Shown one piece after another: positions 1 to 48,653 of a stretch of DNA of 56,447 nt. How positions within the stretch are numbered: position 1 is the first letter of the stretch; each line of letters begins with the position of its first letter. The position numbers were made by a program, and so were the translations under genes. A model generated the notes under the pieces. That model searched no databases. It saw nothing but the letters and a program-made list of their open reading frames with translations, and was not told the DNA's origin. The stretch is from a virus (Duplodnaviria > Caudoviricetes), in IMG/VR virus record IMGVR_UViG_3300012232_000014, positions 1 through 56,447 of that record; one strand, written 5' to 3'.

Positions 1-274
1 CTCCGACAGGGACATTGAACATCAGTCCCATGCGACCGATCTGGGCACCGATCACTTCGGCTTCGTTCCCGAGTGCGATGAGTTCGGCTCCGATCACGGC
101 TCCGGCCGCTACGAAAGCAGTGGCTACCAATCCCTGTCCACTGACAAGAGACTGCACCCAAGCCGTATGCTCACCGCCGAAGGTCTCGAGATTTTTGTGG
201 ACCTTCTCTAAGGTCTCGGTGTACTCGTCCTTGAGTGAGATTACGCCCTGAATGGCACCAATGTCAATAGCCAC
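1..274 (-). CDS. Tape measure protein, N-terminal part (continues at the other end of the window)
   Basis: GTG at 274 opens MAIDIGAIQGVISLKDEYTETLEKVHKNLETF...MGLMFNVPVG, a typical TMP N-terminus directly downstream of the chaperone genes. Open to the window edge; not in the supplied ORF track. Confidence 0.85.
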   Translation of the reverse strand, partial: MAIDIGAIQGVISLKDEYTETLEKVHKNLETFGGEHTAWVQSLVSGQGLVATAFVAAGAVIGAELIALGNEAEVIGAQIGRMGLMFNVPVG

Positions 275-275
275 C

Positions 276-656
276 TTAGTGAACTCCCTTGGCCTGTAGC
301 ACCGCGTTGCTCGTTAAGATCCAACCGTCAATCAGCATCTCTTGGTACTCGACCGACTGACCTTGAGGTTGCTGATCTGGGTTAGGTGTATCCCCGAATG
401 TCAGAAGAAAGTCTCGGAGTGGACGACCGTTTGGATAGCGTGAATCCCGTGCCAGTCGCCACAGGTACTGTACGACATGGGCAGCGTTCCAGTCTGCACG
501 CATTTCCGGAAACGGATCGAGCTCATCAAAGACTTTCCACTCCTTGAATTTCCACGCGGGGATTTGTCGTAACATCCGATCGGGATCGATGTGACCTAAC
601 TGACGTGCGAGTCGGTAGGCGAATCTCCGGTCACCGCCTCGCTTGAGTCCTTTTTT
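276..656 (-). CDS. Tail assembly chaperone, -1 frame extension (gpT-like part of G-T)
   Basis: The frame of ORF 276..575 is open back to the slippery site: KGLKRGGDRRFAYRLARQLGHIDPDRMLRQIPAWKFKEW. Confidence 0.85.
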   Translation of the reverse strand, partial: KKGLKRGGDRRFAYRLARQLGHIDPDRMLRQIPAWKFKEWKVFDELDPFPEMRADWNAAHVVQYLWRLARDSRYPNGRPLRDFLLTFGDTPNPDQQPQGQSVEYQEMLIDGWILTSNAVLQAKGVH

Positions 657-1045
657 AAGGTCACCTCGTCGGCATCACGAAGCCGATTCAACTGCAACGC
701 GACCTTCTGAAGTCGATTCATGACACGCGCACTTTTCTTCTTCAGACGTCGAACATGACCAACGATCTGGTCGTGCTGTTCTTCCGGCGTCCCCTCGAAT
801 GGCCAGAGTCGAATGCCGGTTTCTGGATCGCGTGCGCAGTAGATCAGAATGAGAAACATCCCATCCTTCTTGTGCTCAGGCAGGTCAATCAACGCGTACA
901 TCGCGTTGGACTCCTCTGCATTGAGTTGATGAAGCCGGATCAAACCCGGCTTCCCTTCCTTGGACCACTCGGGAACGCCGACATCCTTGGTCTCGAGATC
1001 CGCAGCGTCGTCGATATCGGCTGCGGATAAGTTGTTCGAGTTCAT
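596..1045 (-). CDS. Tail assembly chaperone (gpG-like)
   Basis: Lies between the tail tube and TMP genes; MNSNNLSAADI...VGVPEW; A-AAA-AAG slippery site near the 3' end. Confidence 0.85.
   Translation of the reverse strand: MNSNNLSAADIDDAADLETKDVGVPEWSKEGKPGLIRLHQLNAEESNAMYALIDLPEHKKDGMFLILIYCARDPETGIRLWPFEGTPEEQHDQIVGHVRRLKKKSARVMNRLQKVALQLNRLRDADEVTLKKDSSEAVTGDSPTDSHVS
650..656 (-). other. Programmed -1 ribosomal frameshift site A AAA AAG
   Basis: Minus strand reads TTA AAA AAG GAC; a -1 slip enters the frame of ORF 276..575. Confidence 0.9.
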
Positions 1046-2884: not shown

Positions 2885-3236
2885 GGTACACCTGAGTGAG
2901 CATCGGTTTTTGCGTACCAGGATCCATGAACCCCTCGATCTCGAGAATCGGTCCACTGTATCCATTCGGTAGAGTTAAACGATCCGTGTAGTTCACGACC
3001 ACGGCCGGGTCAAGAAACAGAATGGACGCTCGCGCAATAACGCTTTCGCCATTCGAAGTCTTGATGGCACGTTGACGCATTTCCACGATAGCCTTCTGGC
3101 TAACGATCGTTGGGTATATCTGCTTGCCTCGTAGATCCTGACCGGCAGAGACTTCCTGCGTGACAGTCGTTTGTAAACTGTCGGTCAAGGTCCTGGCCAA
3201 CGCAATACCCGAACGAAGTGTATCGAGGAAACTCAC
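2877..3236 (-). CDS. Head closure (stopper) protein
   Basis: 119 aa, DRLTLPNG...ILEIE pattern; position in the neck cluster. Confidence 0.65.
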   Translation of the reverse strand: MSFLDTLRSGIALARTLTDSLQTTVTQEVSAGQDLRGKQIYPTIVSQKAIVEMRQRAIKTSNGESVIARASILFLDPAVVVNYTDRLTLPNGYSGPILEIEGFMDPGTQKPMLTQVYLG

Positions 3237-3242
3237 GAATCG

Positions 3243-3680
3243 TTACTCGTCAATTTCAATGGTGACGTCCAACGTTGGACCACCAGTGATGTTATGTAGC
3301 GTCAACGTGGTGCTGGGAGGAATCCAAATGCCACCATGCTGAAGTGCGTTGATTAGATCCCGGAACTCACCAACGGTTCCCGCGACGCCTGTTCTGGCGT
3401 AGAACGTGGTGGGCGCAGTCGGACTGGTACCCCATGCAAGAGCAATGGTTGTCAGACTGCGATCACCGGACGTTCCATCAACCGCAAGAAAGGCTGTAGG
3501 GGTCGTTGGAGTGATTCCGGCCGCTGCCGGTTTTCCAATACCAAACACCCCGGTGACAGCCGTAGCAACGGTGAAACTGAAGTTCCTGACACGGCATCCC
3601 TTGATGCCGGCAAGGATCTCCAATACGGCCTGAGCCGACGTGACGTTGGAAGACCGGACTCCCTGTCGAAATCGTGCCAT
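3243..3680 (-). CDS. Hypothetical virion protein
   Basis: Tightly packed ORF in the neck cluster; Thr/Ala/Gly-rich. Confidence 0.55.
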   Translation of the reverse strand: MARFRQGVRSSNVTSAQAVLEILAGIKGCRVRNFSFTVATAVTGVFGIGKPAAAGITPTTPTAFLAVDGTSGDRSLTTIALAWGTSPTAPTTFYARTGVAGTVGEFRDLINALQHGGIWIPPSTTLTLHNITGGPTLDVTIEIDE

Positions 3681-6908: not shown

Positions 6909-8405
6909 TTAAGCTACTTCCAGCAGGAAGAGCAGTTCGTCGAGTACTTCATCCGGACCAATGGAAACTGAAACGATGCCGGTAATGCACGTTGCCACAA
7001 CACCGACAACAGATACTCTGGCCGATGACGAGACTCCGGATGCACTGATCTCGAGATTGGACTGTATTCCGGTATTGACGACCGTTGCTTCAGCAACAAC
7101 ACGAATAATCCCAATCTCGAGATCGGCGTCAACATCCGACAACGGCACCGATACCGAGATAGAAACGTCAGCGTATCCTCGCGCTGGAACGAGCTCCGCG
7201 ACGACTTCAATCCCTGATATCGGTGCCGATGCCGAAGCTGACGCCGATGCCGAACTGATCGCCAGTCGAAGATCTTCTGGCGTGATGACTTTGGCACGGA
7301 GATCGAATCGATATCTGAACCATCCGCGTGATGGCTGATCGACTTCGATCCGACGAATCGTTGCTGCGCCACCGAACCGAATGCCTCCAGATCCAGCGTA
7401 GCTGAACGCACCGGATGCTGTGGTTGACGTGGTGGCGATACCAGAGAAAACAATTCCACCCGTGACCACGGTGTACGCGGTCGCATGTTTCTCAGTAGCG
7501 TGCCCACTGAATATGATTCCACCGGTTCCGGCCCATGCATGTCCTTGTGCAGAGGTCGAAGCACCGCCGAAAGTAATGCCTCCGGACGTGACAGCATAAG
7601 CCTTGGTAAGCTTGACGGTTCCGGTTCCACCGAAGGTAATGCCGGCAGCAGCAACTGCGTAGGCGAAAGTACGCTTGAGTGTAGCCGCACCGGTGAACCA
7701 GAAACCTCGCAAGGCATGAGCCGTGACGGCAATGCCCGATACTGCCTCGGCAACCGGAAGCTGCCCAACAATGAGAACGACGTTGGTGCTGAATCCGGAA
7801 TGATCGTCGTTAGTGAATTCCAGTTTAATAGCGAAACGATCGTCTTCAACAGCGGCAACGGAAAATGCCGGCAATGGCGGAATGATAACGGGAATCCATG
7901 AACCTTCTGGTTGGAAACTAACCGTTAGTCCCGTAGGCGAACATTCAAGTTCTTCTTTCAGACTATTAGCTACGTCATAGATCTGAATCCAAACTCGAAG
8001 CGATACAGTGGTTCGATTCTCATCATGTCGTGCCCAGATCAGTAATCGCTGCGGAGTCGGAAATGTGTTGTTGGGTGGGAAACTAAGATCGGCTCCGAGA
8101 CCGGGAAATCCTGCGGCCGTGACCCAACCAATAGACTGCGTGATCCCCGGACCGGATGCACTGAGTCCAACGGAGAACTGTTCCGTGCTTCGAACCGAAC
8201 CGTCGTTGAGCACGAACGTATCGAATGTTGCGAAATTAAAATCTGCATCAACGTGCGTCGCAATAAGACGTCCGGGGAAATACGCATAGGTGAATCGCGG
8301 TGCAGTGGTCGCCACACCACCGAATGTGATCCCACCGGAGCCGGTGTACGCGAAAACCGTACCGCCAGCAGCGACTTCGTCGAGCGACCGAAGATCGAGC
8401 AGCAT
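6909..8405 (-). CDS. Fibre-like virion protein with repeated Y-x-x-x-GGI-x-F-(G/S)-G units
   Basis: Repeats such as YTGSGGITFGG, YAVTSGGITFGG, WAGTGGIIFSG, YAGSGGIRFGG. Confidence 0.6.
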   Translation of the reverse strand: MLLDLRSLDEVAAGGTVFAYTGSGGITFGGVATTAPRFTYAYFPGRLIATHVDADFNFATFDTFVLNDGSVRSTEQFSVGLSASGPGITQSIGWVTAAGFPGLGADLSFPPNNTFPTPQRLLIWARHDENRTTVSLRVWIQIYDVANSLKEELECSPTGLTVSFQPEGSWIPVIIPPLPAFSVAAVEDDRFAIKLEFTNDDHSGFSTNVVLIVGQLPVAEAVSGIAVTAHALRGFWFTGAATLKRTFAYAVAAAGITFGGTGTVKLTKAYAVTSGGITFGGASTSAQGHAWAGTGGIIFSGHATEKHATAYTVVTGGIVFSGIATTSTTASGAFSYAGSGGIRFGGAATIRRIEVDQPSRGWFRYRFDLRAKVITPEDLRLAISSASASASASAPISGIEVVAELVPARGYADVSISVSVPLSDVDADLEIGIIRVVAEATVVNTGIQSNLEISASGVSSSARVSVVGVVATCITGIVSVSIGPDEVLDELLFLLEVA

Positions 8406-9036: not shown

Positions 9037-9501
9037 CTACCCGAAGCAGTTGATTTCGAGGAACGAATTCTTCCGCACGCTGATTTGATTCACCGCGTCG
9101 AGCACGTTCTGTGAGAACTGAAACTGCAGTACACCGTCGGTCGGGCCCATCTCGAGATGCCCGGAAATCCGAAGTATGTGCTGACCAATCACCGGGAGAG
9201 CGCCAGCCATCGTACCGTTCAACTGCGCACGCACGAACGCAGACGTCACGCAATCAATCACTTCATACGCAAACTGGCTAGCCAACGCATCGACTGGAGG
9301 ATTCAACTTGAACTTGTATCCCGACGTAGTACCAAACAGCTGAAAGAGGACGAACGCGTTGATAGTATACCGCCGAAAAGATTCAACGGTAACAAACAAT
9401 TCACTATCATCCTTCAGCCCAGTCTGTGTTACTTGCTCGCTGCCTAAAATTTTCTGGGCGACGACCAGTGCGATGTCACCTCGGTTGATACTCTGTGCCA
9501 T
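9037..9501 (-). CDS. Fibre-tip-like beta-sandwich protein
   Basis: DDSELFVTVES...GVLQFQFSQNV...VRKNSFLEI resembles minor tail protein C-terminal domains. Confidence 0.5.
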   Translation of the reverse strand: MAQSINRGDIALVVAQKILGSEQVTQTGLKDDSELFVTVESFRRYTINAFVLFQLFGTTSGYKFKLNPPVDALASQFAYEVIDCVTSAFVRAQLNGTMAGALPVIGQHILRISGHLEMGPTDGVLQFQFSQNVLDAVNQISVRKNSFLEINCFG

Positions 9502-10216: not shown

Positions 10217-10609
10217 TTACGTGATTTCGTCATCGCGCATGTTCTGTGCCATCTCGAGAAGATCATTCTCTTCTGGCTGCAATGGAATTGGTGCCTGGAA
10301 GACATGACCGAGCATACCACGTTGTCTAGGCTGTAATTGTGTCGGCTGGATCATGTTTGACATCGGGTGTAACCACTCTACGAGCATCTGCATACCGATC
10401 CGCGTCGCCCGCATCTCGTCAAGCATCTGTTGCGCGACGTCCTGAGACTCGACCACGCGCATGGGGTTCCCGTTTTCGTCTGCAATCGAAATGATCTGCA
10501 GTTGAACGGTCGCGATGGAACCATCCGTTTGCAGGACTTCCATCTGCAAGTTTGAAATCTTCTTGCCTGTAGAATCCGGCGCGACTTGAACGAGTGATGC
10601 ACGCGGCAT
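10217..10609 (-). CDS. Hypothetical protein
   Basis: MPRASLVQVAPDSTGKKI; start overlaps the upstream stop (TAATG). Confidence 0.6.
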   Translation of the reverse strand: MPRASLVQVAPDSTGKKISNLQMEVLQTDGSIATVQLQIISIADENGNPMRVVESQDVAQQMLDEMRATRIGMQMLVEWLHPMSNMIQPTQLQPRQRGMLGHVFQAPIPLQPEENDLLEMAQNMRDDEIT

Positions 10610-10823: not shown

Positions 10824-11240
10824 TCACCGTATCCTTATCAACGCTGTAAGTGACGTGGGCTCTGGCAGCGTTACCAGAAAGTTCCCATTGGTGCTCGTGT
10901 AGTCTTGACCGAGATCGAGCACCGCAACGGCTCGGTTTTGTTTGGATGCATTGTAGATCAACGCTCCGCGTGCGGTGATCGTGGCCATCGGCCAGAGCGG
11001 ATCCGCCCAATCTAGGTAGGCTACTCGGTTCGATAGCTGGGCCTGATATCCCGACAAGGCCTGACCGCCTGCATCGTAGCCTTGTGAGCCGATCACTTCC
11101 CCATCAGTGGTATACACCGTGGTCGCTGGAGAAAGTTCGGCCTTGGACGAGTACAGCGCCATACGATACACGTCGGACGGGGCGTGGATCCCGAGCAGGA
11201 TCTCGAGACGGAACGAATCGGCCACACCTTGAATGATCAT
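10824..11240 (-). CDS. Small fibre/baseplate-type virion protein
   Basis: SFRLEILLGIH...YRMALY...TTVYTTDGEV...GY.AGG...TITARGALIYN...AVAVLDLG, a pattern I recognise from phage structural regions. Confidence 0.7.
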   Translation of the reverse strand: MIIQGVADSFRLEILLGIHAPSDVYRMALYSSKAELSPATTVYTTDGEVIGSQGYDAGGQALSGYQAQLSNRVAYLDWADPLWPMATITARGALIYNASKQNRAVAVLDLGQDYTSTNGNFLVTLPEPTSLTALIRIR

Positions 11241-11381: not shown

Positions 11382-12860
11382 TTACTCTTCCGTCACTTGA
11401 TACTTGACGGCACCATCCGGACCCGTGATGGTTTTCTTTTTCGGCGGAACCACCGGTGGCTGAGGCTCCGGATTGTTTTTCTTTTCTTCCGCGATTTCGG
11501 CTTCAATCGATTTCAACTCGTCTTCCGGTGAGATCCCTTCGCGTGTCCATCCACCGGTCTTGAGAATGTTGTACCACGTTGCATAGCTGATCTTGTGTTC
11601 TTGCAAGGATTGCAATGCCGCCTGAATGTCTTGCGAGGATGCCTTGATGTTCAGGTACTCCTTGTTGAGTTCGACACTGGCTTCGGTATCGGCCGGTTTG
11701 TCTTCCGTGCCGGTCCACCAGGCCACCGTCTGGAGTACCATTGATAAGCCGAGTTCGATCGATCCCGCGATGGTGCGAAGATTCGCCACATCTCCGGCAT
11801 GCCGCATACGAACGGCGGATGCGGTCTCCTGTACGGTTGCAGAATCCTCTAGCAGTCGGGCACCTAGCGTGGCCATCTGCTTTTTCTTCTCACTCATCGC
11901 GGTGGAAATGGACGCCAGACCCTGCCCGGTGAACTCCAACATGCCGGCATGCCCGCCCTGATCGAGCTCCCAGACTTTGCTAGGACCAATCGGTAACGGT
12001 TCCGTACTGGAGTTCTTTGCTCCGGCCACCCATGGTGTGGGCAAGGCCACAAGATGAAGGCCGTATTCGTAATCTACACTATTGCGCCAATGTCCGAGAT
12101 TGACATCGGCTAGATCAATCAATGGCGGCGTCTCGAGATCTGGCGTGACATTGCTCGGACAAATGAACACGAACGGAATGAAGTTGAGTGCAATACCACG
12201 ACGCACGAGCGTGGTCCTCCCCAATGAGATCCACTCGCGATCTCCACCGGTCTTCTCTTGTTCCTGATATAACTCGACGGTTGCAATGCCGGCTTCGAGT
12301 CGGAGCACGCGATACTGCGTTACGGTGAGACAAACGAATGGATCCTTGGGATCCGGCGTTTCCTTTCGCTCACGCAGCACCAAGTGGTACAGCATGTCGT
12401 CGCCACCGATACGGGTGGTACGCCAATTGATAATGTCTTCGGCACAGTAGCCCACGCAGTACGGCCGACCATCGGTGACCGGTTCTGGAGGCATGTCCGT
12501 CAAGATGCCGTACCGTCCGACCAACATGATCTCTTTGCCGACGGCCTGTGAAAACATCTCGAAGGGAATGTTGGTCAGTGTAATGTCGTCGAGATAGGTC
12601 TTGATGGCTTCCGGGAATTCGACTTCAGCCGGTTCTTGATAGATCGCCCCGGTCATGCCTTCGGTCGTGCGTTTGACCGCGTTGTAGAAATTTCCCCGTT
12701 CACGGTAGGCTTGATTCTCTGCCACGTCCTTCGCTGGAAGAGATGGACAGTAGCGAACTCCAGCCTTGAGGATAGCGTCCCGACCGCCGAAGCAGTCGCG
12801 TAGTCGTGACCACTTCACGCGCATCTCGTCGTAGTCGGTACGTGTACTGTCTACCGGCAT
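11382..12860 (-). CDS. Portal protein (DUF4055-like)
   Basis: AYRERGNFYN, VGRYGILTD, AEDIINWR, PPLIDLADVNLGHWRNSVDY and MATLGARLL motifs. Confidence 0.9.
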   Translation of the reverse strand: MPVDSTRTDYDEMRVKWSRLRDCFGGRDAILKAGVRYCPSLPAKDVAENQAYRERGNFYNAVKRTTEGMTGAIYQEPAEVEFPEAIKTYLDDITLTNIPFEMFSQAVGKEIMLVGRYGILTDMPPEPVTDGRPYCVGYCAEDIINWRTTRIGGDDMLYHLVLRERKETPDPKDPFVCLTVTQYRVLRLEAGIATVELYQEQEKTGGDREWISLGRTTLVRRGIALNFIPFVFICPSNVTPDLETPPLIDLADVNLGHWRNSVDYEYGLHLVALPTPWVAGAKNSSTEPLPIGPSKVWELDQGGHAGMLEFTGQGLASISTAMSEKKKQMATLGARLLEDSATVQETASAVRMRHAGDVANLRTIAGSIELGLSMVLQTVAWWTGTEDKPADTEASVELNKEYLNIKASSQDIQAALQSLQEHKISYATWYNILKTGGWTREGISPEDELKSIEAEIAEEKKNNPEPQPPVVPPKKKTITGPDGAVKYQVTEE

Positions 12861-12862: not shown

Positions 12863-13162
12863 CTATGAATCCTTGGGACAGAAGTCCCGCAGGCCGACGG
12901 TGGGAAGCACCGGTTGATACAGTTGATTGGGATTCTGAAAGCCGGGATTGAAGGTCAGCTGCTCGATGAAGAGATCGGCACCGGCAATGAGCGCATCACG
13001 TTCTTCCGAGGTGAGCGTCCATCTCGAGATGCACCGTCCCTCTGGTCCATCCAGTTGCACCAACGGCAACGGCCGATACTGCGGTTGATCTTTCGCCAAC
13101 ACCCGGACTTGATGGGGTGGCAGGAAAGCACGATCCTCGTCCTCGATCATCACCGGTTCCAT
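12863..13162 (-). CDS. Hypothetical phage protein
   Basis: AKDQPQYRPLP...ISRWTLTSEER...QLTFN..QPV; between terminase and portal genes. Confidence 0.7.
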   Translation of the reverse strand: MEPVMIEDEDRAFLPPHQVRVLAKDQPQYRPLPLVQLDGPEGRCISRWTLTSEERDALIAGADLFIEQLTFNPGFQNPNQLYQPVLPTVGLRDFCPKDS

Positions 13163-15985: not shown

Positions 15986-16110
15986 TACCGTTTCCTTTCT
16001 CTCGAGAGTAGTTGGCCACCACGGCAACGCGCCAACATGACGCGATCGCGTGCATTAAAAGAAGGTAGGAGATATCCGTCCTGTGTTACCCCGATACCGC
16101 GAATGCTCAT
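15985..16110 (-). CDS. Possible 41-aa protein
   Basis: AGGAG RBS; MSIRGIGVTQDG...RERKR; TAATG coupling to the next gene. Confidence 0.4.
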   Translation of the reverse strand: MSIRGIGVTQDGYLLPSFNARDRVMLARCRGGQLLSRERKR

Positions 16111-21895: not shown

Positions 21896-21905
21896 CGGAG
21901 GATGA

Positions 21906-30991: not shown

Positions 30992-31147
30992 GTGAGAGGA
31001 GGACGCAGTCGATTGCCGGCATGCGTGCTGGGAGAGATCGAACGGAAGGTCCAGCAGGATGCCGATCGGTATCACGTTTCGAAGTCGTTCGTTGTCAGCG
31101 TCGTACTCGCCAACCACTACGGGATTCGGAAACAGGAACAGTTTTAG
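30992..31147 (+). CDS. Possible ribbon-helix-helix-like protein (start uncertain)
   Basis: Read manually: VRGGRSRLPACVLGEIERKVQQDADRYHVSKSFVVSVVLANHYG. Confidence 0.4.
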   Translation: MRGGRSRLPACVLGEIERKVQQDADRYHVSKSFVVSVVLANHYGIRKQEQF

Positions 31148-31565: not shown

Positions 31566-31674
31566 GAGTCGCGTTTTGGATTCTGATCGGCAACGTGGGC
31601 CGACGCTTGACGGACTGGTCCACCCGTCATCTCGAGACGCGTCATCTCGTGGATCAGGTCAAGGAGAAATTGGA

Positions 31675-32772: not shown

Positions 32773-32970
32773 ATGTCCAGAAGGAAGAAACGTCCGCATG
32801 TGAGCCGAGTGCGGCCGCTGTCTGTTCCGCTGGCCTTCTACATGGACGATCCCATTCAACCGGTAACACCCGAACAGTGGAACTATCTCGAGACGCGTGC
32901 TCGCATTCTTCAATTCAAAAAACGACGAACCGTCTGCCGCTGGCCTGAGGATAAATCGAATGGCAACTGA
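32773..32970 (+). CDS. Hypothetical basic protein
   Basis: Fills the gap between neighbours. Confidence 0.45.
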   Translation: MSRRKKRPHVSRVRPLSVPLAFYMDDPIQPVTPEQWNYLETRARILQFKKRRTVCRWPEDKSNGN

Positions 32971-34571: not shown

Positions 34572-34771
34572 TCATTCGAAAGCCTCGCGAGATCTCGAGA
34601 CCGACGATGCCCTTGCCCATCCATCCCTGTCCGTGCAAAGCCAAGCACGACTTCAACTGCCGGAACAAGTCAGCATTCCGTGATATGGTTTGTCTGGAGT
34701 GCTTCATCAAGTGCAACGGAGAAAGTCACCAACCCCGCTACATTACGATACGGAGAAGGAGAAGGCGATGA
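34568..34771 (+). CDS. Small Cys-rich protein
   Basis: ATGA couplings; several Cys. Confidence 0.5.
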   Translation: MIIRKPREISRPTMPLPIHPCPCKAKHDFNCRNKSAFRDMVCLECFIKCNGESHQPRYITIRRRRRR

Positions 34772-36070: not shown

Positions 36071-36164
36071 GATTTCGAGTCCCGTCACGACTTGGGCACT
36101 CCGCCCCGGAGTGGGACGGCAATTCTGCCGGCCTGGGAACCGAGTCGTGGCGGGACTCGAGATC
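36071..36164 (+). ncRNA. 94-nt structured RNA: 25-bp basal stem plus two inner hairpins
   Basis: 36071-36095 pairs with 36140-36164, with only three G-U pairs and no mismatch; inner CACTCCG/CGGAGTG and CGGCA/TGCCG. Confidence 0.75.
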
Positions 36165-37204: not shown

Positions 37205-38034
37205 ACCTGATTCACGCACACGTTGTCGTGATCGGCGGAGGTTACGTCGGTCAACTCATTCAGCATGCCATTCCGTCCGCACGATTGCTCGACTGGCGGA
37301 AGACGGCTCCGGCCGATCATCTCGAGACGCGCATCGGTCCGCAATACTTGTGGGAGCCAATCCCCGGACTGAAGTCGTACTCGTTTCCGGTGATCACGTT
37401 GGTAGACGGCAAGCCTCCCACCCCGGAATCTATTCTGGCTTACAAAAAGAAAATCGGGAAGCAAGACGATGAAGGTGATTGGGGACTTCAGTTCCAGCAT
37501 GAGACCGTTGGATGGCATAGCCATCTCCCGGTTCCTCGTGTTGAATATGATCGCAGGGTCCGATCCATTGATCTGGCTGCCCACACGCTTACGATGAAGG
37601 ATGAGGACGACGCGATCATTCATTACGACCTGCTGCTCAATACCATCCCTCTCGATTACTTCCTCCGACTCTGTGTGATTACGCCGCCAGTTCATTATCC
37701 ATGGCGGAATAATCCGATCTACATGACATCAGTGAATCCAGTCGATGCCACCGAAGGATACACTCTCAACTACATTTCCTCTCCAGAATTTGTTACCTAT
37801 CGTATCACGTTCACTCCCGGGAAAACCTTTTACGAAACACTGCTAGAACCGGCTGACCGAGACTTCGTGAAACTTGTGCCTGGCAAAATTCACCCGCATC
37901 CAGAGAGTGAAAAGATTCTGAAGGCCTTACGCATGTACGGCGTCCAGTGCTTCGGCCGCTATGCTACATGGCGTCCGGACGAGCTCGCCCACCAGACGTG
38001 GGAACACATCGTGGCATGGAGGGACTCGCTGTGA
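37201..38034 (+). CDS. FAD-dependent oxidoreductase (UDP-galactopyranose mutase / HemY-like fold)
   Basis: VVVIGGGYVG dinucleotide motif, GPQYLW, YDLLLNTIPL and C-terminal FGRYATW. Confidence 0.75.
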   Translation: MNLIHAHVVVIGGGYVGQLIQHAIPSARLLDWRKTAPADHLETRIGPQYLWEPIPGLKSYSFPVITLVDGKPPTPESILAYKKKIGKQDDEGDWGLQFQHETVGWHSHLPVPRVEYDRRVRSIDLAAHTLTMKDEDDAIIHYDLLLNTIPLDYFLRLCVITPPVHYPWRNNPIYMTSVNPVDATEGYTLNYISSPEFVTYRITFTPGKTFYETLLEPADRDFVKLVPGKIHPHPESEKILKALRMYGVQCFGRYATWRPDELAHQTWEHIVAWRDSL

Positions 38035-39071: not shown

Positions 39072-40404
39072 ACCGCATGCCGTGCACACCGGGGAGGATC
39101 CCCGCAATCCGATCACCTACGGACCCGAGAGTCTGAAGGTGACTCTCGATCGCTGGGGACCGGTGGACAATCTATTCACCTCCATGTACGACGCCTTGCA
39201 AGCAAACTGGGGTGACGCTCCGAGCCGGACGGTGAACCGAACAACGTATGGAGAATCTCCGAGGGGATGGAATCCGCCAGATGATCGCGTACCGTCGTCC
39301 GGTGGACGACAATTGTCAGATGATTATACCCGCACCGGGTGGCACGTTCTGTCAAATGACGAACGCGACTATATCGAATCCTGCTTCGCAGGCCGAACGT
39401 TGCAGCAGGTGCTCGAAGGCGTGACGTTCGATTTCTGTATCGATGGCGTCGCCCGAGCGTTCACCCACCAGAACGTGCGCACACGGCTCGGAGCCGGATT
39501 CATGCAACACGGTGGCCGGGACAACGACTGGCGCCACCGGGCGTGGACGATGCCGGAGACGATACGGCGAATGTGCGCCTACCATCACGCTGCTGATTTT
39601 GGGCCAGCGTCAGCCGTGCCGTGGATTGCAGGATCTGAAGACCTGAGGCACTGTATCACGGACTGGAATCCGATTGGTGAGTATCTGTCAACTCTGGAAG
39701 ATGTGAAACCGTCCGAAGGAGATTTTGACGAACCGGGGATGTCGATCCACGCCGCGATTTCAGAGCATCTCGAAAATACCCGACGGCTGTACGCGGCTCT
39801 GGTCGATGCCGGCATTCCTTGGCAGGACGCGCGACGCGTGTTGCCGATTGGGATGCAGACCTATATCCATGACCAGTACAATTATCTGGCCTTGGCTGGT
39901 GTGCTGGCCAATCGATTGGAGCACATCATGGATTGGGAATTCAACTGTGTCGCCCAGTTGATGCTGCGAGAGATCAAGATGAAGTGCCCGCCCCTCCTCT
40001 CAAAGTATCTCGGCAGCCACAGTGACCGTGCGAAGCAAGCGAAGTTTGCCGGTCTCGAGAGTTGGCCACCAGACGGAAAGTATCCGAGTCCCTATGACGA
40101 TTGCGAGCTCTGTGGTCATGCACGGTCTATGCATGTTGATCTTAAAACCGCAGCAAAGATCAGCGAGCGTTATCATCTCGAGACTCCACTCTATCCAGGA
40201 GAGATGGTCTGCTCAGAATGTGAACGAGAAGGAAACAAGGCTCGCACATCTCCGTTGCATAAACTCATTCCCAAAGATCGTCTTCCTCGGCAGCACCGAC
40301 CGGAGCAGATGCCGTTCTTCGTGTTGCATCCTGACAGCATGGCGGGCGGACCGATCGTTTGGATCGCAACCAACGGCACCTATCCGCACGATCAGGTGCG
40401 CTAA
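39046..40404 (+). CDS. Divergent flavin-dependent thymidylate synthase (ThyX-like)
   Basis: FDFCIDGVARAFTHQNVRTR...QHGGRD, LVDAGIPWQDARRVLP and RL...WE; 452 aa with extensions. Confidence 0.85.
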   Translation: MAYEDAKHRPHAVHTGEDPRNPITYGPESLKVTLDRWGPVDNLFTSMYDALQANWGDAPSRTVNRTTYGESPRGWNPPDDRVPSSGGRQLSDDYTRTGWHVLSNDERDYIESCFAGRTLQQVLEGVTFDFCIDGVARAFTHQNVRTRLGAGFMQHGGRDNDWRHRAWTMPETIRRMCAYHHAADFGPASAVPWIAGSEDLRHCITDWNPIGEYLSTLEDVKPSEGDFDEPGMSIHAAISEHLENTRRLYAALVDAGIPWQDARRVLPIGMQTYIHDQYNYLALAGVLANRLEHIMDWEFNCVAQLMLREIKMKCPPLLSKYLGSHSDRAKQAKFAGLESWPPDGKYPSPYDDCELCGHARSMHVDLKTAAKISERYHLETPLYPGEMVCSECEREGNKARTSPLHKLIPKDRLPRQHRPEQMPFFVLHPDSMAGGPIVWIATNGTYPHDQVR

Positions 40405-40536: not shown

Positions 40537-41412
40537 ATGGCCGTGGTGAAACGGGAACCGCACAAGAAGAGCAAAAAGAACAAACACGACGAGGACGACG
40601 ACGAACCGCGCGAAAAATTTCAGCTGGCCACCGAGCTCACGGAGCCAAGCGACCATCTCGAGGACTACATCATCCTGCTCACCGGCGAAAAAAAGATCGG
40701 TAAGACCACGTTGGCCGGAGAGTTCGACTCCGACAAGTCCTACTTCCTCGCGACCGAAGTAGGCTACCGAGGCTTGCGAATTCGTAAGTCAGATATCCCG
40801 GATTGGCGCACCGCGAAGCAAGCAGCGAAGGCGTTACAGAAGGCCGGGAAGAAGTACGGACCGATCATCGTGGACACCGTGGACAAACTCTACACACTCT
40901 GCGAAGCGTACATCTGCGAGAAGCTGGCGATCTCGCATCTGTCGGATGAAGAGTGGGGCAAGGGCTATGCGGAATGCCGAAAGGAGTTTGATCGCTACAT
41001 CACCCTGCTCTCGCAAATCGGCGTGGGGCTCATTCTCATTTCACACACCGAGGAACGGGAAGTCAAACGTCGCGGTGGCGGCACCTACGATCGTATCGTA
41101 CCGACGATGTCCAAGCAGGCTCGGCAAGTCATCGAGCCACTCGTGGACATCTGGACCTACTACATGTACGACGGCGATCGTCGGCAGCTGGTGATCCAAG
41201 GAGACGACCACATCGCCGCTGGTCATCGACTCGTGGACCGGTTCCGCAGTCCGGCAGGGAAACCGATCCGCGCTATTGACATGGGCCGTTCTGCCAAGCG
41301 TGCCTACAGGAATCTCATCTCGGCCTTCAACAATGAATACGAACCGCCGGATGAAGAACAGGCAGAGGAGGAGCCGAAGAAATCGAAGTCATTTAAAATC
41401 CGTCGGGCATGA
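40537..41412 (+). CDS. Sak4-like AAA ATPase (ssDNA-annealing recombinase)
   Basis: LTGEKKIGKTT, IIVDTVD, WGKGY and LILISH motifs. Confidence 0.85.
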   Translation: MAVVKREPHKKSKKNKHDEDDDEPREKFQLATELTEPSDHLEDYIILLTGEKKIGKTTLAGEFDSDKSYFLATEVGYRGLRIRKSDIPDWRTAKQAAKALQKAGKKYGPIIVDTVDKLYTLCEAYICEKLAISHLSDEEWGKGYAECRKEFDRYITLLSQIGVGLILISHTEEREVKRRGGGTYDRIVPTMSKQARQVIEPLVDIWTYYMYDGDRRQLVIQGDDHIAAGHRLVDRFRSPAGKPIRAIDMGRSAKRAYRNLISAFNNEYEPPDEEQAEEEPKKSKSFKIRRA

Positions 41413-42460: not shown

Positions 42461-42515
42461 AACCAGCCGACACCATCCGGCTTACCAATGCCCGTAACGT
42501 GTCGGCTGGTTTTTT
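42461..42515 (+). terminator. Intrinsic terminator
   Basis: 13-bp stem AACCAGCCGACAC/GTGTCGGCTGGTT followed by a T-tract. Confidence 0.8.
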
Positions 42516-42531
42516 ATTTCTGGAGATGATC

Positions 42532-43092
42532 ATGCGAGCGTATGAACAGATTGCGATCAAGACCTTTGACGTCGCCCAGCGCGTTCAGGATAATGCGTGG
42601 ACGCGTGCGTTCGACGAGCACGGTCAAGCAGATCTGATGAAATGGAAACGTGATGACGTCAGCGCGGTGCATATTTATTTGCACCCCGATTATATGCCGG
42701 TGCCGATTGGTTCCAGCTTCCGTGTCCGGCTCGCGTTCAACTACGACCTGATCCCCGGCAAGGAACTAGAGTTAATTCAGCTGCTGGAAGGTCAGACGGT
42801 TCAACTCATGCTCGGAGAGCCAGGTGAGGGTCTGTCCCATCTGGGATATCACATTCCTGATAGCATGTGGCTGCTGACCGAACTCGATTGGTGGAATGTA
42901 CAGGGATTCGCCTGCACGCAGATTTCGGTGACCACCGAACATACCGGTACGAATCGCCGGTATCTGTACGCCTTCGTCGATACCCGGCAACAGATCGGAG
43001 CCTACACCAAGATCATTTCACGCATGACCGGATCTCGAGATCTGAGCTCGTTGGTCGAGGAGTACAGTCATGTTAACACTACCCGACGGTAA
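42532..43092 (+). CDS. VOC (glyoxalase / methylmalonyl-CoA epimerase-like) protein
   Basis: YEQIAI, ELELIQLLEG, GLSHLGYHI and YAFVDTRQQIG motifs. Confidence 0.7.
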   Translation: MRAYEQIAIKTFDVAQRVQDNAWTRAFDEHGQADLMKWKRDDVSAVHIYLHPDYMPVPIGSSFRVRLAFNYDLIPGKELELIQLLEGQTVQLMLGEPGEGLSHLGYHIPDSMWLLTELDWWNVQGFACTQISVTTEHTGTNRRYLYAFVDTRQQIGAYTKIISRMTGSRDLSSLVEEYSHVNTTRR

Positions 43093-43492
43093 TTCGTTCG
43101 TAGATCTCCGGCTTCGACTTCTGCGTCTGGCCGGATATCCGGATCCCGGTGAGCGGTACGTCGAACACGGCAAACGAAACGCACGCATCCATTGGGAATT
43201 CAAACTCATTCTGAGCGTGCTGGAAGAAGTCGCGGCACGAAAGGTGGATGGCTACGGTCCCTTTCGCTATGATGAGATCGAAAACAACTGGCGATGGGAG
43301 ATCCAATCGTTGTACCAGGATATCGAACGAAAATTTGGTCGGTTGAAAACCATGGTACGGCCAGACCCGATTGAGCAAGAGGACGCGGATAGCTTGCTCG
43401 AGATCCTCTCAGACCTGGCCGTATACAGTGCACGTGCTATTCAGATCATCGTACGGTTGGAAGATAGAATGAAGGAGAAGGTGAAGGTATGA
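43070..43492 (+). CDS. Nmad1/DUF1599-like all-alpha nucleotide-modification-associated protein
   Basis: ARKVDGYG...DIERKFGRLK...LSDLAVYS pattern. Confidence 0.6.
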   Translation: MLTLPDGNSFVDLRLRLLRLAGYPDPGERYVEHGKRNARIHWEFKLILSVLEEVAARKVDGYGPFRYDEIENNWRWEIQSLYQDIERKFGRLKTMVRPDPIEQEDADSLLEILSDLAVYSARAIQIIVRLEDRMKEKVKV

Positions 43493-44360: not shown

Positions 44361-46472
44361 GTGCTAAAGCTTCTCGACAACACGTTGATCTTCGATACGG
44401 AGACCACGGGACTCTGGCCGTGGCCTACTGAGTATCGAAAGAAAATGTGCATCAAGCCGGATCGTCCGTTCCTCTTCGTGTTCACGAATCTGGAAGGTGA
44501 CACGGTCACGGTGCGTGCACCGAAAATCAATCCCTACACACGGCGTGTAAGCTATAAGGGTATTGAAGCCGAACTCCGGTGGTTCAAGAAATTCGTAGCC
44601 AACCCCGACAACCGAATTGTCTGCCACCATGCTCGGTTCGATCGAGCCATGACGATGCAGTCCGATATCCAAGCACAGTGGAATTGCCACATCCACGATA
44701 CGCGAGTGATGGCTCGTATCGCCAACCCGACCAACGAACCGACCTTTGCACTGAAGCCGTTGGCGAAAAAGTATCTCGAGATTGACGACGCGGATCTGGC
44801 CGCATTGAAAAAGGGCGTCGCGATCGCACGACGTCAAGCCAAAGCCAAGGGCTGGACCATCGCCACAAAAGAGTCGCACGGTCAACATCCGGCCGAAGCT
44901 GACTACTGGTTACCAGACGTCGAAACACTCGTGGACACCTATGGCGGCACGGACGGTCTGCGGACCGCAGGTCTATATCGGTTCTACCGGAAGTTGTTCG
45001 ATCACAATAAAAAGTTCGGTGGACGGCTGTGGGAAATGTATCGATGGGAACGTCGTACGATGCGAACGGCCATGGAGATGGAACGCGTCGGCATGACGTA
45101 CCATTCGAAGGCCGGACTCGCGTTACGAAAAATGTACACGGCGTACATGCAGGAGCATCGCACGGCTCTAGATCGTCGCGGCTACAAGGATTTGAATCTT
45201 CAGTCACCCAAGCAGTTAGTGAATTTGTTCGTGAACCAACTCGGCTATCATACCGAGCATGAAACGAAGGGTGGGAAATTCGAGCGACCGCAACCGAAGA
45301 TTGATGCCGAGCAATTGATGGTCTGGGCACGCGGATCCGCTGCGGGTGCAGACGTAGACGGTGACGCCAAGGACGGCTGCAGGATCAGTCGGAACGTACT
45401 AGAGTGGAAGGCCGGAAAGAAAGTCATCGAGTACATCGACTCGTACGAATTCTTCAAATGCAAACGGGCAGATGGTTCCACCGTGCATCACCCGGCATGG
45501 GACAGTGCGGGAGCTCGGACCGGACGCTTCAGTTGTCACGATCCCAACGAGATGCAGATCGCGTCCGCAGAGACCAGCCGTCGGCACAGCCACATCCGAG
45601 CACGTCAACGGGAGTGCTTCGGTCCACGTCCAGGGTACTACTGGTACATGCCGGATTATTCCCAGATCGAAGTCTGGGTGTTTGCATTCGAAGCCAACGA
45701 AGAGTCGATGAAGCAAGCATTGCTCTCTGGGAGTGATTTTCATCTCTCGACCGCGCGAGCCGCATGGCATGACCGTGATGATTTCTGTACGTGCGGCCGT
45801 TGGAAGGAAGTCGAGCAGGAGATGCGTCGGAACAAGAAGTTCATCTTGGTCTGGGATGTGGAGAAGACCAAGCACAAAAAGGGATGTCTGATCAAGTGGT
45901 GGCGTCAGCGCGCCAAGATGATTCTGTTCTCGAGACTGTACGGTGGAGGCATCGATAAGATCGCCTTCCTGATTCGCTGCACGCGAAAGGAAGCTAAGCG
46001 GTTCATCGCCGAATTCAACGAGAACCTGCCGGGTGTAAAAACCTACATGCGCGAGACCGTTGATCGTGTGCGAGAGACCGGCATGCTGATCAATCTGTTC
46101 GGTCGAGAGTACCCGATCGATAAGAACTTCGCGTACAAGGCCGTCAACTATCAGATTCAAGGAAGCAGTGCGGAGATCATGAAGCGTGCGACCGTGCGCG
46201 TCAACGATCATCTGCTTGAAAACTATCCCGGTGAGTGGGCCTACGACGAAGACCTGAATGAAGAGTACCACGGCTCACATGTGGCCGGGACTGTGCATGA
46301 CGAACTCATCAGCGAGATTCATCCAGACGATCACAGCAAGCAACTGATGCGTGAGATCGTGCACCTGATGCAAAAAGATTCACACGTCGTCCCGAATCTC
46401 CACGTGCCTCTCCCGGTGGGGATGAAGTGGACGAAGACGAATTGGTCTGAAGCCAAAGAGATTTCATTGTAA
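44361..46472 (+). CDS. polA: DNA polymerase family A with 3'-5' exonuclease
   Basis: ExoI FDTETTG, ExoII HHARFD, ARTGRFS, motif A DYSQIE, motif B RQRAKMILFSRLYG, NYQIQG and motif C VHDEL. Confidence 0.95.
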   Translation: MLKLLDNTLIFDTETTGLWPWPTEYRKKMCIKPDRPFLFVFTNLEGDTVTVRAPKINPYTRRVSYKGIEAELRWFKKFVANPDNRIVCHHARFDRAMTMQSDIQAQWNCHIHDTRVMARIANPTNEPTFALKPLAKKYLEIDDADLAALKKGVAIARRQAKAKGWTIATKESHGQHPAEADYWLPDVETLVDTYGGTDGLRTAGLYRFYRKLFDHNKKFGGRLWEMYRWERRTMRTAMEMERVGMTYHSKAGLALRKMYTAYMQEHRTALDRRGYKDLNLQSPKQLVNLFVNQLGYHTEHETKGGKFERPQPKIDAEQLMVWARGSAAGADVDGDAKDGCRISRNVLEWKAGKKVIEYIDSYEFFKCKRADGSTVHHPAWDSAGARTGRFSCHDPNEMQIASAETSRRHSHIRARQRECFGPRPGYYWYMPDYSQIEVWVFAFEANEESMKQALLSGSDFHLSTARAAWHDRDDFCTCGRWKEVEQEMRRNKKFILVWDVEKTKHKKGCLIKWWRQRAKMILFSRLYGGGIDKIAFLIRCTRKEAKRFIAEFNENLPGVKTYMRETVDRVRETGMLINLFGREYPIDKNFAYKAVNYQIQGSSAEIMKRATVRVNDHLLENYPGEWAYDEDLNEEYHGSHVAGTVHDELISEIHPDDHSKQLMREIVHLMQKDSHVVPNLHVPLPVGMKWTKTNWSEAKEISL

Positions 46473-46481
46473 AGGATACCG

Positions 46482-48653
46482 GTGCCCACATCTACGTCCA
46501 CAAAACTTCGTCCGTTCGAAACTCACGGTGTTGAGTTCACCGGTGAACGTGGTGACGAACGATACGGGACCTGCCCATTTACCGGCAAGGCAGAAAAATT
46601 CTACGTCAACGTCAAGACCGGGTTGTGGGATAGTAAGACCGCTGGACTCTCCGGCAACATCCCACAGTTCCTTCAACAGATTTCCAAACTGTATGTCAGC
46701 CAGATGACAGAGCCGATCCTTCGACGTCTGGCCGATGACCGTAGCTTGCCAACGCTAGCGTTCAAGAATTGGCAGGTGGGTTGGGATGGACGGAACTATA
46801 CGATTCCGATTCGTGATCTGGATGGCAACGTCGTTGACATTCGTATCTATCACCTGGGTCGGAACATGATTTCGACCGGTGGGTGCCATGTCGGACTGTT
46901 GGGAGCCGAGCGTATCGGCCGCAAGTCCGAACCGATCTATCTCTTCGAAGGCGAGTGGGACACGGTGGCCGCGTCGCTCATCATGCAGAAGATCGGGATC
47001 CCCGGAGTGTGCGTAGGCGTGCCTGGTGCCGGCATCTTTAAGCCGGAATGGATCCCGTGGTTCGCTGGACGCATCGTGCACACGCACTACGACAAAGACA
47101 GTGCAGGCGAAGCCGGGGAGCAGCTGATTGATAAACGGCTCGCTGGGGTGGCCAAGAGCGTGACCTACGTACACTGGCCGGAAGATCTCCCGGAAGGGTT
47201 TGATGTCCGTGATTGGATCGTGTATGGGCTGACTAAACGCACACCCAAGAAATCGTGGGCACGACTGACGCGACTGTACGAACCAAAACCACGTGTTCGA
47301 GAATTGCCGCCAGCGAAGCCTCAGACGTACACTCTGAAGAGGAAGAAAGGAAAGCTACGACTCGCATGGAAGAAACCGCCGACACTCGATGATGTGCATG
47401 ATGTGTTTCGGAAGTGGCTGTTCCTCGACAGCACTAACGGTATCGACGTACTGCTGGCGACGATGATTTCGCAGCGACTCGAAGGTCCGCCAGTGTGGCT
47501 GTTCCTCGTGGGCCCACCAGGATCCGCGAAGACCGAACTGATCTCATCGTTACACGATCTGGATGACGTCTATTCCACAAGCACCGTCACGCCGCACTCG
47601 TTGATCTCTGGTGCAAACTTCGCTGGCATGAAACAGGATCCGTCGCTCATTCCGAAACTGAACGGCCGAGTGTTGGTGGTCAAAGATTTCACCGCCGTGA
47701 TGGGTGCGAAGGATCAGGAGAAGGACGAGATCTTTAGCATCTTGCGTGACGCCTACGACGGCTCTTGTGGCAAGGTATTTGGCAACGGCGTTGAACGCGC
47801 CTACGATTCACGGTTCACGGTGATCGCGGCCGTGACGCCGATGATCTACGATGTCGGCACACGGCATGCACAACTTGGCGAACGGTTTCTGAAGTTCAGC
47901 ATGGCCGACAATCTGAACCACCCGGACGAATACGCGATCATCTCGAGAGCGATCGACAACACCGATCGCGAGACCAAGATGAAGAAAGAGATCCGGGACG
48001 TGGTGCGAGAGTTCGTGGAACGCACCTTGAAAGACGTGGTGCTCCCAACGATCTCTCCGGAACTGAAAGACCGATTGATCTGGCTGGGGAAGTTCGGTGC
48101 ACGTATGCGCGGCACGGTGTCTCGAGATTCGTACCGCAACGATGTCATCACGTCCAGGCCGTCAGCAGAAGTCGGTAGTCGGTTAGGGATCCAACTCGCG
48201 AAGTTGGCGCGGTCGTTGGCCATGCTGCACAAACGCGAGGAAGTAAACGAAGACGATTTCATAATCGTGAAGAAGGTGATGCTCGATACCGTGATGCAGC
48301 GCACGGAAGACGTGCTGCGCATCTTGCATCTCGCATGGGATCGCGGACCGGTCTCGACCGTGGAGCTCGCGACCGAGACGCGATATCCGCAAGCCACCGT
48401 GTTGCGGCTGTTGCAGGATTTGCACGTGCTCGATATCGTCGTGCGCACCGGCAGCAGCTACAAGCACAAGTGGCGTGTCTCCGACTACGTGCACGAATGT
48501 ATTACGAATTGCGGCATGTACACCACCGATGAAGAACGGTCTCGCACCACCGGTCTGCAAATCAAATTGCGACGCATGAAAGGTCAGACAAAATTCAAAC
48601 TGGCACGTGTGCTGCGCATGGCGTCCGGAGCGAGCTCTCCGGGGACCTCATAA
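46482..48653 (+). CDS. Primase-helicase (TOPRIM plus AAA+ ATPase plus C-terminal wHTH)
   Basis: CPF N-terminal ribbon, LFEGEWD, YDKDSAG, GFDVRD, LVGPPGSAKT and LVVKDF motifs. Confidence 0.88.
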   Translation: MPTSTSTKLRPFETHGVEFTGERGDERYGTCPFTGKAEKFYVNVKTGLWDSKTAGLSGNIPQFLQQISKLYVSQMTEPILRRLADDRSLPTLAFKNWQVGWDGRNYTIPIRDLDGNVVDIRIYHLGRNMISTGGCHVGLLGAERIGRKSEPIYLFEGEWDTVAASLIMQKIGIPGVCVGVPGAGIFKPEWIPWFAGRIVHTHYDKDSAGEAGEQLIDKRLAGVAKSVTYVHWPEDLPEGFDVRDWIVYGLTKRTPKKSWARLTRLYEPKPRVRELPPAKPQTYTLKRKKGKLRLAWKKPPTLDDVHDVFRKWLFLDSTNGIDVLLATMISQRLEGPPVWLFLVGPPGSAKTELISSLHDLDDVYSTSTVTPHSLISGANFAGMKQDPSLIPKLNGRVLVVKDFTAVMGAKDQEKDEIFSILRDAYDGSCGKVFGNGVERAYDSRFTVIAAVTPMIYDVGTRHAQLGERFLKFSMADNLNHPDEYAIISRAIDNTDRETKMKKEIRDVVREFVERTLKDVVLPTISPELKDRLIWLGKFGARMRGTVSRDSYRNDVITSRPSAEVGSRLGIQLAKLARSLAMLHKREEVNEDDFIIVKKVMLDTVMQRTEDVLRILHLAWDRGPVSTVELATETRYPQATVLRLLQDLHVLDIVVRTGSSYKHKWRVSDYVHECITNCGMYTTDEERSRTTGLQIKLRRMKGQTKFKLARVLRMASGASSPGTS

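Follow-up and report, generated by a model that had tools for sequence, protein, structure and literature searches.

The window analyzed here is the entire IMG/VR virus record IMGVR_UViG_3300012232_000014, 56,447 bp in length, which gene calls and Pfam/PHROGs scans identify as a tailed phage genome. It carries 30 copies of the 8-bp palindrome TCTCGAGA. The octamer is enriched by a force that acts on DNA, it has been gained repeatedly among related phages, it is conserved above background, and it co-occurs with a family of winged-helix proteins. A second palindrome, TGCCGGCA, is enriched alongside it. The two form a phage-borne, lineage-variable palindrome pair of the highly iterated palindrome (HIP) kind, and their flank rule is complementary to a known nuclease specificity. 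Tentatively, we lean toward reading TCTCGAGA as positively selected binding sites for a group-specific DNA-binding protein, with the winged-helix paralogues as candidates, an account that sequence comparison makes possible but not probable.

The 30 start positions listed in a preliminary description of this DNA are all exact matches, and no further copies are present in the window. In 100 dinucleotide-preserving shuffles, the octamer occurred 1.53 times on average (standard deviation (sd) 1.24, maximum 5). Markov models predict 0.83 copies at order 0, 1.77 at order 3, 3.85 at order 4, and 8.59 at order 5. At order 6 the expectation is 30.12, a value that is circular because the 7-mers on which it is conditioned are almost all parts of TCTCGAGA: CTCGAGA and TCTCGAG each have 32 copies, of which 30 fall within the octamer. 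The preliminary description had taken fifth- or sixth-order Markov models as a valid test of the enrichment. They are not, since such models absorb the signal, and order 6 returns 30 by construction. It had also named a codon-preserving null, and under that null the enrichment persists. Across 1000 within-gene shuffles of synonymous codons, copies averaged 7.05 (sd 1.32, maximum 13), a figure that counts five fixed copies outside gene calls; within genes, about 2 copies are expected from these shuffles and 25 are observed. The excess over composition nulls (30 versus 1.5-1.8) is at least 15-fold, as for octamers of the HIP1 type. The 24 one-mismatch variants of the octamer occur 0-4 times each.

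For comparison with the window, 17 metagenomic relatives were assembled from IMG/VR (labelled G0xx/L0xx). The copies of TCTCGAGA, with the residues encoded at each coding site, are as follows:

184..191, outside gene calls; also at the aligned place in G001
991..998, gene 596-1045 (minus), D-L-E-T
2939..2946, gene 2877-3188 (minus), I-L-E-I; E replaced by N/T/D in relatives
7049..7056, gene 6909-8405 (minus), N-L-E-I
7115..7122, gene 6909-8405 (minus), D-L-E-I
9150..9157, gene 9037-9501 (minus), H-L-E-M
10252..10259, gene 10217-10609 (minus), L-L-E-M
11201..11208, gene 10824-11240 (minus), R-L-E-I
12131..12138, portal gene, D-L-E-T; common to G001 and G037
13022..13029, gene 12863-13162 (minus), I-S-R
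16000..16007, outside gene calls
20770..20777, gene 20720-21169 (plus), D-L-E-T
23594..23601, gene 23364-23777 (plus), Y-L-E-I
24438..24445, gene 24374-24772 (plus), L-S-R with Arg as AGA
25543..25550, gene 25334-25573 (plus), A-L-E-T
25649..25656, outside gene calls
27562..27569, gene 27412-27780 (plus), S-R-D
28259..28266, within the winged-helix paralogue gene 28047-28355 (plus), D-L-E-I
31630..31637, gene 31562-31807 (plus), H-L-E-T
32886..32893, outside gene calls
33507..33514, SNF2 helicase gene, S-R-D at a variable position
34593..34600, intergenic
37320..37327, gene 37201-38034 (plus), H-L-E-T; common to G001, G003, and G037
40053..40060, ThyX-like gene, G-L-E-S with Ser as AGT; same switch from TCN in G028, G029, and G038
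40176..40183, ThyX-like gene, H-L-E-T
43033..43040, gene 42532-43092 (plus), S-R-D
44774..44781, PolA gene, Y-L-E-I versus Y-L-G-I in G001, G002, and G003
45928..45935, PolA gene, F-S-R with Arg as AGA; common to G001 and G003; TCC CGG in G002
47941..47948, primase-like gene, I-S-R with Arg as AGA; common to G001 and G003
48120..48127, primase-like gene, conserved S-R-D; TCT CGA GAT in the window alone

The 25 coding copies occupy all three reading frames, as had been described before, though unevenly: 17 read nnT-CTC-GAG-Ann, four read TCT-CGA-GAn, and four read nTC-TCG-AGA. The octamer fills 25 of the 50 codon contexts in which it is synonymously possible, where codon usage predicts 1.56. 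By context, it is used in 17 of 31 cases of x-L-E-y, 4 of 6 of S-R-[D/E], and 4 of 13 of [F/L/I/V]-S-R. The x-L-E-[T/I/M/S] contexts are used in 17 of 21 cases and the x-L-E-[K/N] contexts, which would place an A 3' of the motif, in none of 7. AGA makes up 5% of the Arg codons in the window, yet it is recruited for the octamer. Comparison of orthologous codons across the 18 genomes revealed a change of Arg from CGN to AGA at 45928 and 47941, a switch of Ser from TCN to AGY at the 40053 codon in the window, G028/G029, and G038, and amino acid replacements behind several sites, such as G to E at 44774. The TCN to AGY switch, the use of AGA, the replacements, and the codon nulls together demonstrate a DNA-level force on TCTCGAGA. 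The excess is the result of positive selection at the DNA level, or of strongly biased conversion, and not of codon bias. The earlier proposal that selection acts on DNA and not on protein has thus survived the codon nulls, with rare codons and codon-family switches put to use.

Of the 60 half-flanks, 30 have A directly 5' of the T that opens the octamer, 20 have G, 7 have C, and 3 have T. The motif therefore extends one base on each side and reads [not T]TCTCGAGA[not A]; no conservation was found around the octamer beyond these ±1 bases. A palindromic extension to 10 bp past the marginal R/Y preference was rejected (13 of 30 versus about 11 expected by hand count, not significant), and GATCTCGAGA is the reading of 13 of the 60 half-sites. 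A repeat element resembling repetitive extragenic palindromes (REP) or miniature inverted-repeat transposable elements (MITE) was also rejected, given the lack of conservation past ±1 base and the 25 of 30 copies inside called genes. The octamer has no preference for intergenic DNA, strand, or region. The coefficient of variation of its spacing is 0.906, within the range of random placements, so that no quasi-periodicity is detectable at the low power of 30 sites. The preliminary description was correct that no copy lies after 48127, but the 8.5-kb gap is not significant: a gap of at least 8511 bp arose in 25% of 20,000 random placements on the circularised genome (P=0.25). Recent import of this motif-free tail, which offers just 2 synonymous opportunities, receives no support (Fisher p=0.49).

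The hexameric core of the octamer follows a strict flank rule. CTCGAG occurs 34 times in the window, with both T and A flanks in 30 copies and one such flank in the other 4, which are the few differently flanked copies remarked on in the preliminary description:

22735..22740, CTCGAG with the T flank on one side
36156..36161, CTCGAG with the A flank on one side
40657..40662, CTCGAG with the T flank on one side
43397..43402, CTCGAG with the A flank on one side

VCTCGAGB is absent from the window, where 400 codon shuffles contain 8.4±2.7 copies (minimum 1). VCTCGAGB is listed as the recognition sequence of the restriction enzyme PspXI in a table of PMC12378416. The window therefore lacks cleavable CTCGAG, as in PspXI-type avoidance, and PspXI excludes precisely the flanks that remain.

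The second palindrome, TGCCGGCA, is present in 12 copies and fills 11 of 54 synonymous contexts; dinucleotide shuffles predict 1.05 copies and codon shuffles 2.0. It behaves like TCTCGAGA, more weakly. Its copies are located at:

3605..3612
7640..7647
7866..7873
11942..11949
18028..18035
26256..26263
29573..29580
31014..31021
34271..34278
39807..39814
47027..47034
53596..53603

GCCGGC is depleted, and its remaining copies are T-flanked. Among all hexamers in the window, G001, and G028, the top palindromic 5'-flank biases are T before CTCGAG and T before GCCGGC. A single degenerate motif for both palindromes, TSYCGRSA, was rejected, as mixed combinations of half-sites are not enriched. Only the two perfect palindromes are, which fits symmetric recognition. 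The preliminary description, whose observation of 30 copies was right, had overlooked that VCTCGAGB is absent, that a second palindrome exists, and that the relatives vary in the trait.

Several other short sites differ between the sister phages. The window has no CAGCTC/GAGCTG, where codon shuffles contain 29.1±4.6, and G001 and G002 have a single copy each. For CCGCGG, one copy in the window compares with 20.2 expected. GAGCTC occurs 27 times in the window, 32 times in G001, and not at all in G002, where CAGCTG reaches 42 copies. These patterns look like restriction-avoidance fingerprints that vary from one sister phage to the next.

The trait is variable among the relatives. The octamer accounts for 30 of 34 CTCGAG in the window, 15 of 19 in G001, 10 of 11 in G037, 7 of 8 in G039, and 5 of 7 in G003. 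The proportions are 12 of 45 in G028, 7 of 37 in G027, 4 of 9 in G029, and 3 of 6 in G038, and in G025, G026, and G030-G035 only 1-4 of 10-30 copies are of this form, with flanks near random. Total CTCGAG is near expectation in all but the window (34 versus 17-22) and G028. In G002 there are 2 copies of TCTCGAGA; 14 of its 16 CTCGAG have GT/AC on at least one side, and GTCTCGAG takes the place of the octamer (15 versus 2.2 expected). The window and G001 are 72.5% identical where alignable. Five of the 12 alignable TCTCGAGA sites are kept in G001, compared with 10.4% of all aligned 8-mers (p=0.005), which is conservation above control octamers of the kind seen with HIP1; G002 retains none of 7.

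In trees of the primase-like protein, the ThyX-like protein, and the exonuclease, the window groups with G001, G003, G037, G038, and G002 in a single clade. The sister of this clade (G025, G026, G030, and G035) is without the trait. G028/G027 and G039 are placed elsewhere, and G028/G029 stand apart from the window and G038 in the primase-like and exonuclease trees. Because the enriched genomes sit in separate lineages of these trees, the trait has arisen or been lost several times. A stricter scan of viral contigs for pairs of the octamer returned 38 stretches, and one distant relative, L042, was recognised. Among the pair matches listed, other viral records locally rich in TCTCGAGA were set aside as clusters or tandem repeats (G006, G008, and G009) or as unrelated and without a clear flank rule (G020).

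Three early proteins of the window share a domain of ~70 amino acids (aa):

26696..26947 (plus), winged-helix paralogue 1, 83 aa, a candidate motif-binding protein
28047..28355 (plus), winged-helix paralogue 2, with the domain C-terminal and the true start uncertain
32098..32751 (plus), winged-helix paralogue 3, 217 aa

The structural model of the domain is confident (mean predicted local distance difference test score 86.6) and suggests winged-helix topology, and VIA-align gives Z scores of 5.1-7.3 to many winged-helix DNA-binding domains, among them those of Fur/Nur, MarR, Orc/Cdc6, and DpnI (5.5-6.7). The family matches Pfam HARE-HTH (PF05066) weakly: 4 of 13 members reach E<=1, and the best score, 17 bits, is below the cut-off of 25.9. 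HARE-HTH is also a DNA-binding module of restriction endonucleases; the phage family falls short of the Pfam threshold and stands alone. A search of 5.8 billion protein clusters yields just 18 members at E<=0.001, carried by contigs of similar size, and a closer alignment search of viral contigs returned known relatives only. Paralogue 3 combines a Cys-x-His...Cys-Pro-x-Cys cluster, a charged linker, the winged helix, and a Lys-rich C-terminal tail, a layout reminiscent of linker histones, and is encoded just upstream of the helicase.

A hidden Markov model (HMM) of the domain detects three copies each in the window, G001, and G037, two in G038, one each in G002, G027, and G028, and a weak match in G031. 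It detects none in G025, G026, G030, and G032-G035, and none in the partial genomes G003, G029, and G039. Eight genomes have a completeness of 93% or more. Three of them contain clear copies and have 30, 15, and 12 TCTCGAGA, and the other five, including G031 with its weak match, have 1-4. Genomes with more paralogue copies tend to have a stronger T-flank bias, both at CTCGAG (rho 0.67, p=0.006) and at GCCGGC (rho 0.58, p=0.023), and the biases at the two cores are themselves correlated (rho 0.52, p=0.046); all three correlations are uncorrected for kinship. The family is restricted to this phage group and co-occurs with the TCTCGAGA trait. A binding site for a phage protein had been among the earlier suggestions; family presence does track the trait, as a correlation only.

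These observations suggest a phage lineage that would have written TCTCGAGA into nearly every place its proteins tolerate. The resulting array would provide genome-wide, high-affinity sites for a symmetric, presumably dimeric, sequence-specific DNA-binding protein, for which the paralogues at 26696-26947, 28047-28355, and 32098-32751 are the best candidates; both their binding and their action as dimers are predictions. Each added site would bring a dose-dependent benefit by helping to mark, coat, organise, or shield the phage chromosome. A binding array explains why the octamer is in excess, why it is strictly symmetric and particular in its flanks, why it is conserved and saturates in a dose-like manner, and why it goes with the winged-helix family. 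Several points weigh against it. The association has few independent contrasts, one clear (the clade of the window versus its sister) and one moderate (G028/G027). G028 has one detected winged-helix copy, yet it has the T-flank bias at both cores. G039 (7 of 8) and G029 display the trait with no winged-helix copy found, on contigs that are 31% and 74% complete, and the G002 contig is without most of the region that holds two of the window's paralogues. The structural matches reach no further than a common fold (best Foldseek E value 0.35; VIA Z below 8). The total absence of VCTCGAGB (0 versus 8.4) and the one-sided GTCTCGAG rule in G002 fit restriction more naturally. To our knowledge, no phage protein uses such an array.

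Restriction is the basis of the main alternative, itself rather doubtful. Hosts with PspXI-type (VCTCGAGB) and GCCGGC-specific systems would have caused the phage to purge cleavable CTCGAG, and selection would favour the surplus T/A-flanked copies as uncleavable decoys, on which the nuclease is held or the methylase loaded; G002 would be protected by overlapping GTCTC methylation on one strand. The missing VCTCGAGB and the match between the flanks kept and those excluded by PspXI (in the table of PMC12378416) agree with this, as do the 0-1 CTCGAG without a T/A flank per genome in G001, G003, G037, G038, G039, and G002, compared with random flanks in G025 and G030-G035. The depletion of GCCGGC with T-flanked survivors, the GT/AC flanks in G002, and the other avoidance in the window, which is strong and relative-specific (CAGCTC, CCGCGG, and GAGCTC), agree as well. 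However, avoidance yields deficits and alone predicts ~2 TCTCGAGA, whereas the immune octamer of the window is in ~17-fold excess. Most of its sites were newly created and are not rescued old CTCGAG, and G028 gained 12 T-flanked copies while retaining 11 unflanked ones. Nearly any 6-bp palindrome is the site of some enzyme, so the core alone says little. The benefit of a decoy is hypothetical, and we know of no precedent for it. Avoidance of the PspXI type explains the missing forms of CTCGAG and the one-sided rule of G002, but it cannot explain the de novo excess. Binding and restriction may also be combined, with sites that are uncuttable by a nuclease and bound by a phage protein. In one such combination, which we judge unlikely, saturating 8-10-bp palindromes are a self-label or decoy, unseen by host XhoI/PspXI- and GCCGGC-type nucleases and bound by the winged-helix proteins. 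This array would evolve fast, overriding codon choice and amino acid sequence, with flank rules that switch between sister phages.

The remaining explanations place the cause in the host, in DNA modification, in recombination, or in coding. A ratchet of the HIP1 type, in which a host methyltransferase and biased mismatch repair convert near-sites with no benefit to the phage, follows the model of Elhai as described in PMC5861425. The dispersed, conserved octamer with nested methylase-type cores (CTCGAG/TCGA and GCCGGC/CCGG) resembles HIP1, and the trait varies between close relatives, as a host-dependent trait would. The host side is where this account becomes improbable. One genome from each of 185,579 species was scanned for 3 TCTCGAGA within ~350 bp, a pattern that would catch about half of single genomes at the phage density, and 67 stretches were returned. 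The repeatedly matched genomes (Nocardioides, Galbitalea, and an Actinomycetota metagenome-assembled genome) have 239-359 copies per 3.3-5.0 Mb and ~70% G+C, while phages with the trait span 50-62% G+C. Their copies (L134-L199, such as G017:C1:67212-67738) are mostly pairs ~37 bp apart in local clusters and therefore represent a repeat element and not a dispersed signal; this looks like a short repeat-element family around the same palindrome. Lentibacillus juripiscarius, also matched repeatedly, has 58 copies in 3.2 Mb, and ten further matched genomes have 13-699. In a count of 301 genomes from the phylum of one of these ten, the densest had ~1 copy per 8.7 kb, compared with 1 per 1.9 kb in the window. 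Neither the three-copy scan nor the 301-genome count revealed a bacterial genome with a dispersed density like that of the window. The host signature put forward in the preliminary description is thus not supported so far, and it is less likely, only that, because the scan detects about half of single genomes and the host may lie outside the collection.

Similarly improbable is that the octamer is the target of sequence-specific covalent modification by phage enzymes, encoded by the 37201-44226 cluster with its type of PolA, with more sites giving more marks. Genes 42532-44226 (two family-less proteins and an SDR) and the window-type PolA are confined to seven genomes (the window, G001, G003, G038, G039, G002, and G029), all of which have the T-flank bias, and the ThyX-like protein and a MazG-like/P-loop kinase fusion adjoin them. 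Against this, G028 and G027 are enriched without genes 42532-44226, one mark per 1.9 kb protects little, the strong avoidance of restriction sites suggests that the phage DNA lacks general shielding, and no methyltransferase, glycosyltransferase, or base-modifying family was detected among the scanned proteins of the window. The scan covered 56 of the 88 gene calls, 50 with Pfam and 6 more with PHROGs only, the other 32 being mostly short; it revealed no DNA methyltransferase or restriction nuclease family. If the octamer acted like Chi, halting a RecBCD/AddAB-type nuclease of the host on linear phage DNA, each site would bring a dose-dependent benefit, and the sites are dispersed, genic, and frame-independent. 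Known Chi sequences are asymmetric and strand-oriented, however, and the enrichment in the window concerns two different perfect palindromes and no mixed half-sites; with no host enrichment in either survey, this explanation is very improbable. Finally, x-Leu-Glu-x is encoded by 17 of the 25 coding copies, and CTC and GAG are common codons, as expected for a by-product of codon usage, amino acid motifs, or a repeat element. The codon shuffles refute this, and the three frames, the copies outside genes, the lack of conservation past one flanking base, and the recruited rare codons leave it practically no probability.

The closest known system is HIP1 (GCGATCGC) of cyanobacteria, and the preliminary description had pointed to this resemblance, which is borne out for a dispersed, conserved, saturating octameric palindrome. 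Both are octameric palindromes in at least 15-fold excess, dispersed in coding and non-coding DNA and in all frames, conserved above control 8-mers, with nested methylase-type sub-palindromes and an unsettled function. The motif of the window differs in sequence, in being borne by a phage lineage and found in no cellular genome searched, in its lack of detectable periodicity, in its second palindrome, in the absence of non-flanked cores, and in having no cognate methyltransferase among the proteins scanned. The Noc-binding sites (NBS) of Noc, the SlmA-binding sites (SBS) of SlmA, and the parS sites of ParB are dispersed 12-16 bp palindromic sites on cellular chromosomes, with known regional exclusion and function. 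They too comprise tens of short palindromes inside genes, irrespective of frame and strand, and are bound by a dimeric protein of the helix-turn-helix (HTH) type; the motif of the window spans 8-10 bp in a phage genome of 56 kb, and its binder is a candidate. As in other cases of phage restriction avoidance, palindromes and CAGCTC are strongly depleted in the window. PaeR7I is not known to cut CTCTCGAG. A literature search on PaeR7I with CTCTCGAG found no report of the TCTCGAGA motif, and a broader search, with supplementary files outside its reach, found no report of the motif or of an iterated palindrome in phage. In the literature covered, the only over-represented restriction site was CCGG in Helicobacter, mildly so (ratio ~1.4-1.5) and without an explanation (PMC4687349).

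Phages are known for shunning short palindromes, and here one fills about half of its synonymous opportunities, at the price of changes in the proteins themselves. Three decades on, the function of cyanobacterial HIP1 has yet to be settled. The 56-kb phage is a far smaller test system for an iterated palindrome: its close relatives range from many copies to few or altered ones, and it encodes three candidate binders. If the restriction link were true, the phage would practice counter-defence by gaining look-alike sites and not by losing sites, and flank rules could be used to read out the host restriction systems of uncultured phages.

The main structural genes of the window are as follows:

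4772-5944 (minus), major head protein
11382-12860 (minus), portal
13165-14586 (minus), large terminase
50321-54013 (minus), TIG-domain fibre, 1230 aa
54603-56438 (minus), tape measure

The early and replication arm extends from 17199 to 48653 on the plus strand and encodes a ligase, the SNF2 helicase, a RuvC-like resolvase, a RecB-like exonuclease, the ThyX-like protein, a Sak4-like annealing protein, an SDR, PolA, and the primase-like protein. The structural gene arm continues across the ends of the record (1-274 and 54603-56447), which is therefore a circular permutation of the genome; direct terminal repeats are present in the relative G001 (57,879 bp). A tRNA search found no tRNA genes in the window, and megablast of 20 kb of it against 50,697 deposited phage records found no near relatives. 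By tblastn, its PolA and major head protein have a best identity of at most 39%, with phages of varied hosts, and for both reasons no host is inferred. A protein atlas gives a weak Pseudomonadota lead for terminase-like clusters only.

Nucleotide-metabolism genes are clustered at 37201-44226, followed by PolA at 44361-46472. The ThyX-like protein in this cluster has 452 aa and a Cys/His-rich C-terminal extension, and it is accompanied by the MazG-like and P-loop kinase fusion, the two family-less proteins, and the SDR, which is FabG-like. The cluster and PolA may constitute a non-standard nucleotide pathway. In the early arm, 1.2 kb at 21169-22400 contain no open reading frame above the coding score, only overlapping weak ones on both strands, and this stretch may be non-coding or regulatory.

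GATC occurs 513 times in the window, compared with 401.6±11.9 in codon shuffles and ~216 by base composition. In L127 (G007, 13,219 bp), a viral record unrelated by protein, GATC occurs every 58 bp (229 copies); of its 19 CTCGAG, 8 are TCTCGAGA, and GAGCTC, GCCGGC, and CCGCGG are absent. The unrelated complete phage record G020 (L215-L217, 54,420 bp) has 52 CTCGAG with random flanks, a single GAGCTC, and 36 copies of CCCCCCAC.

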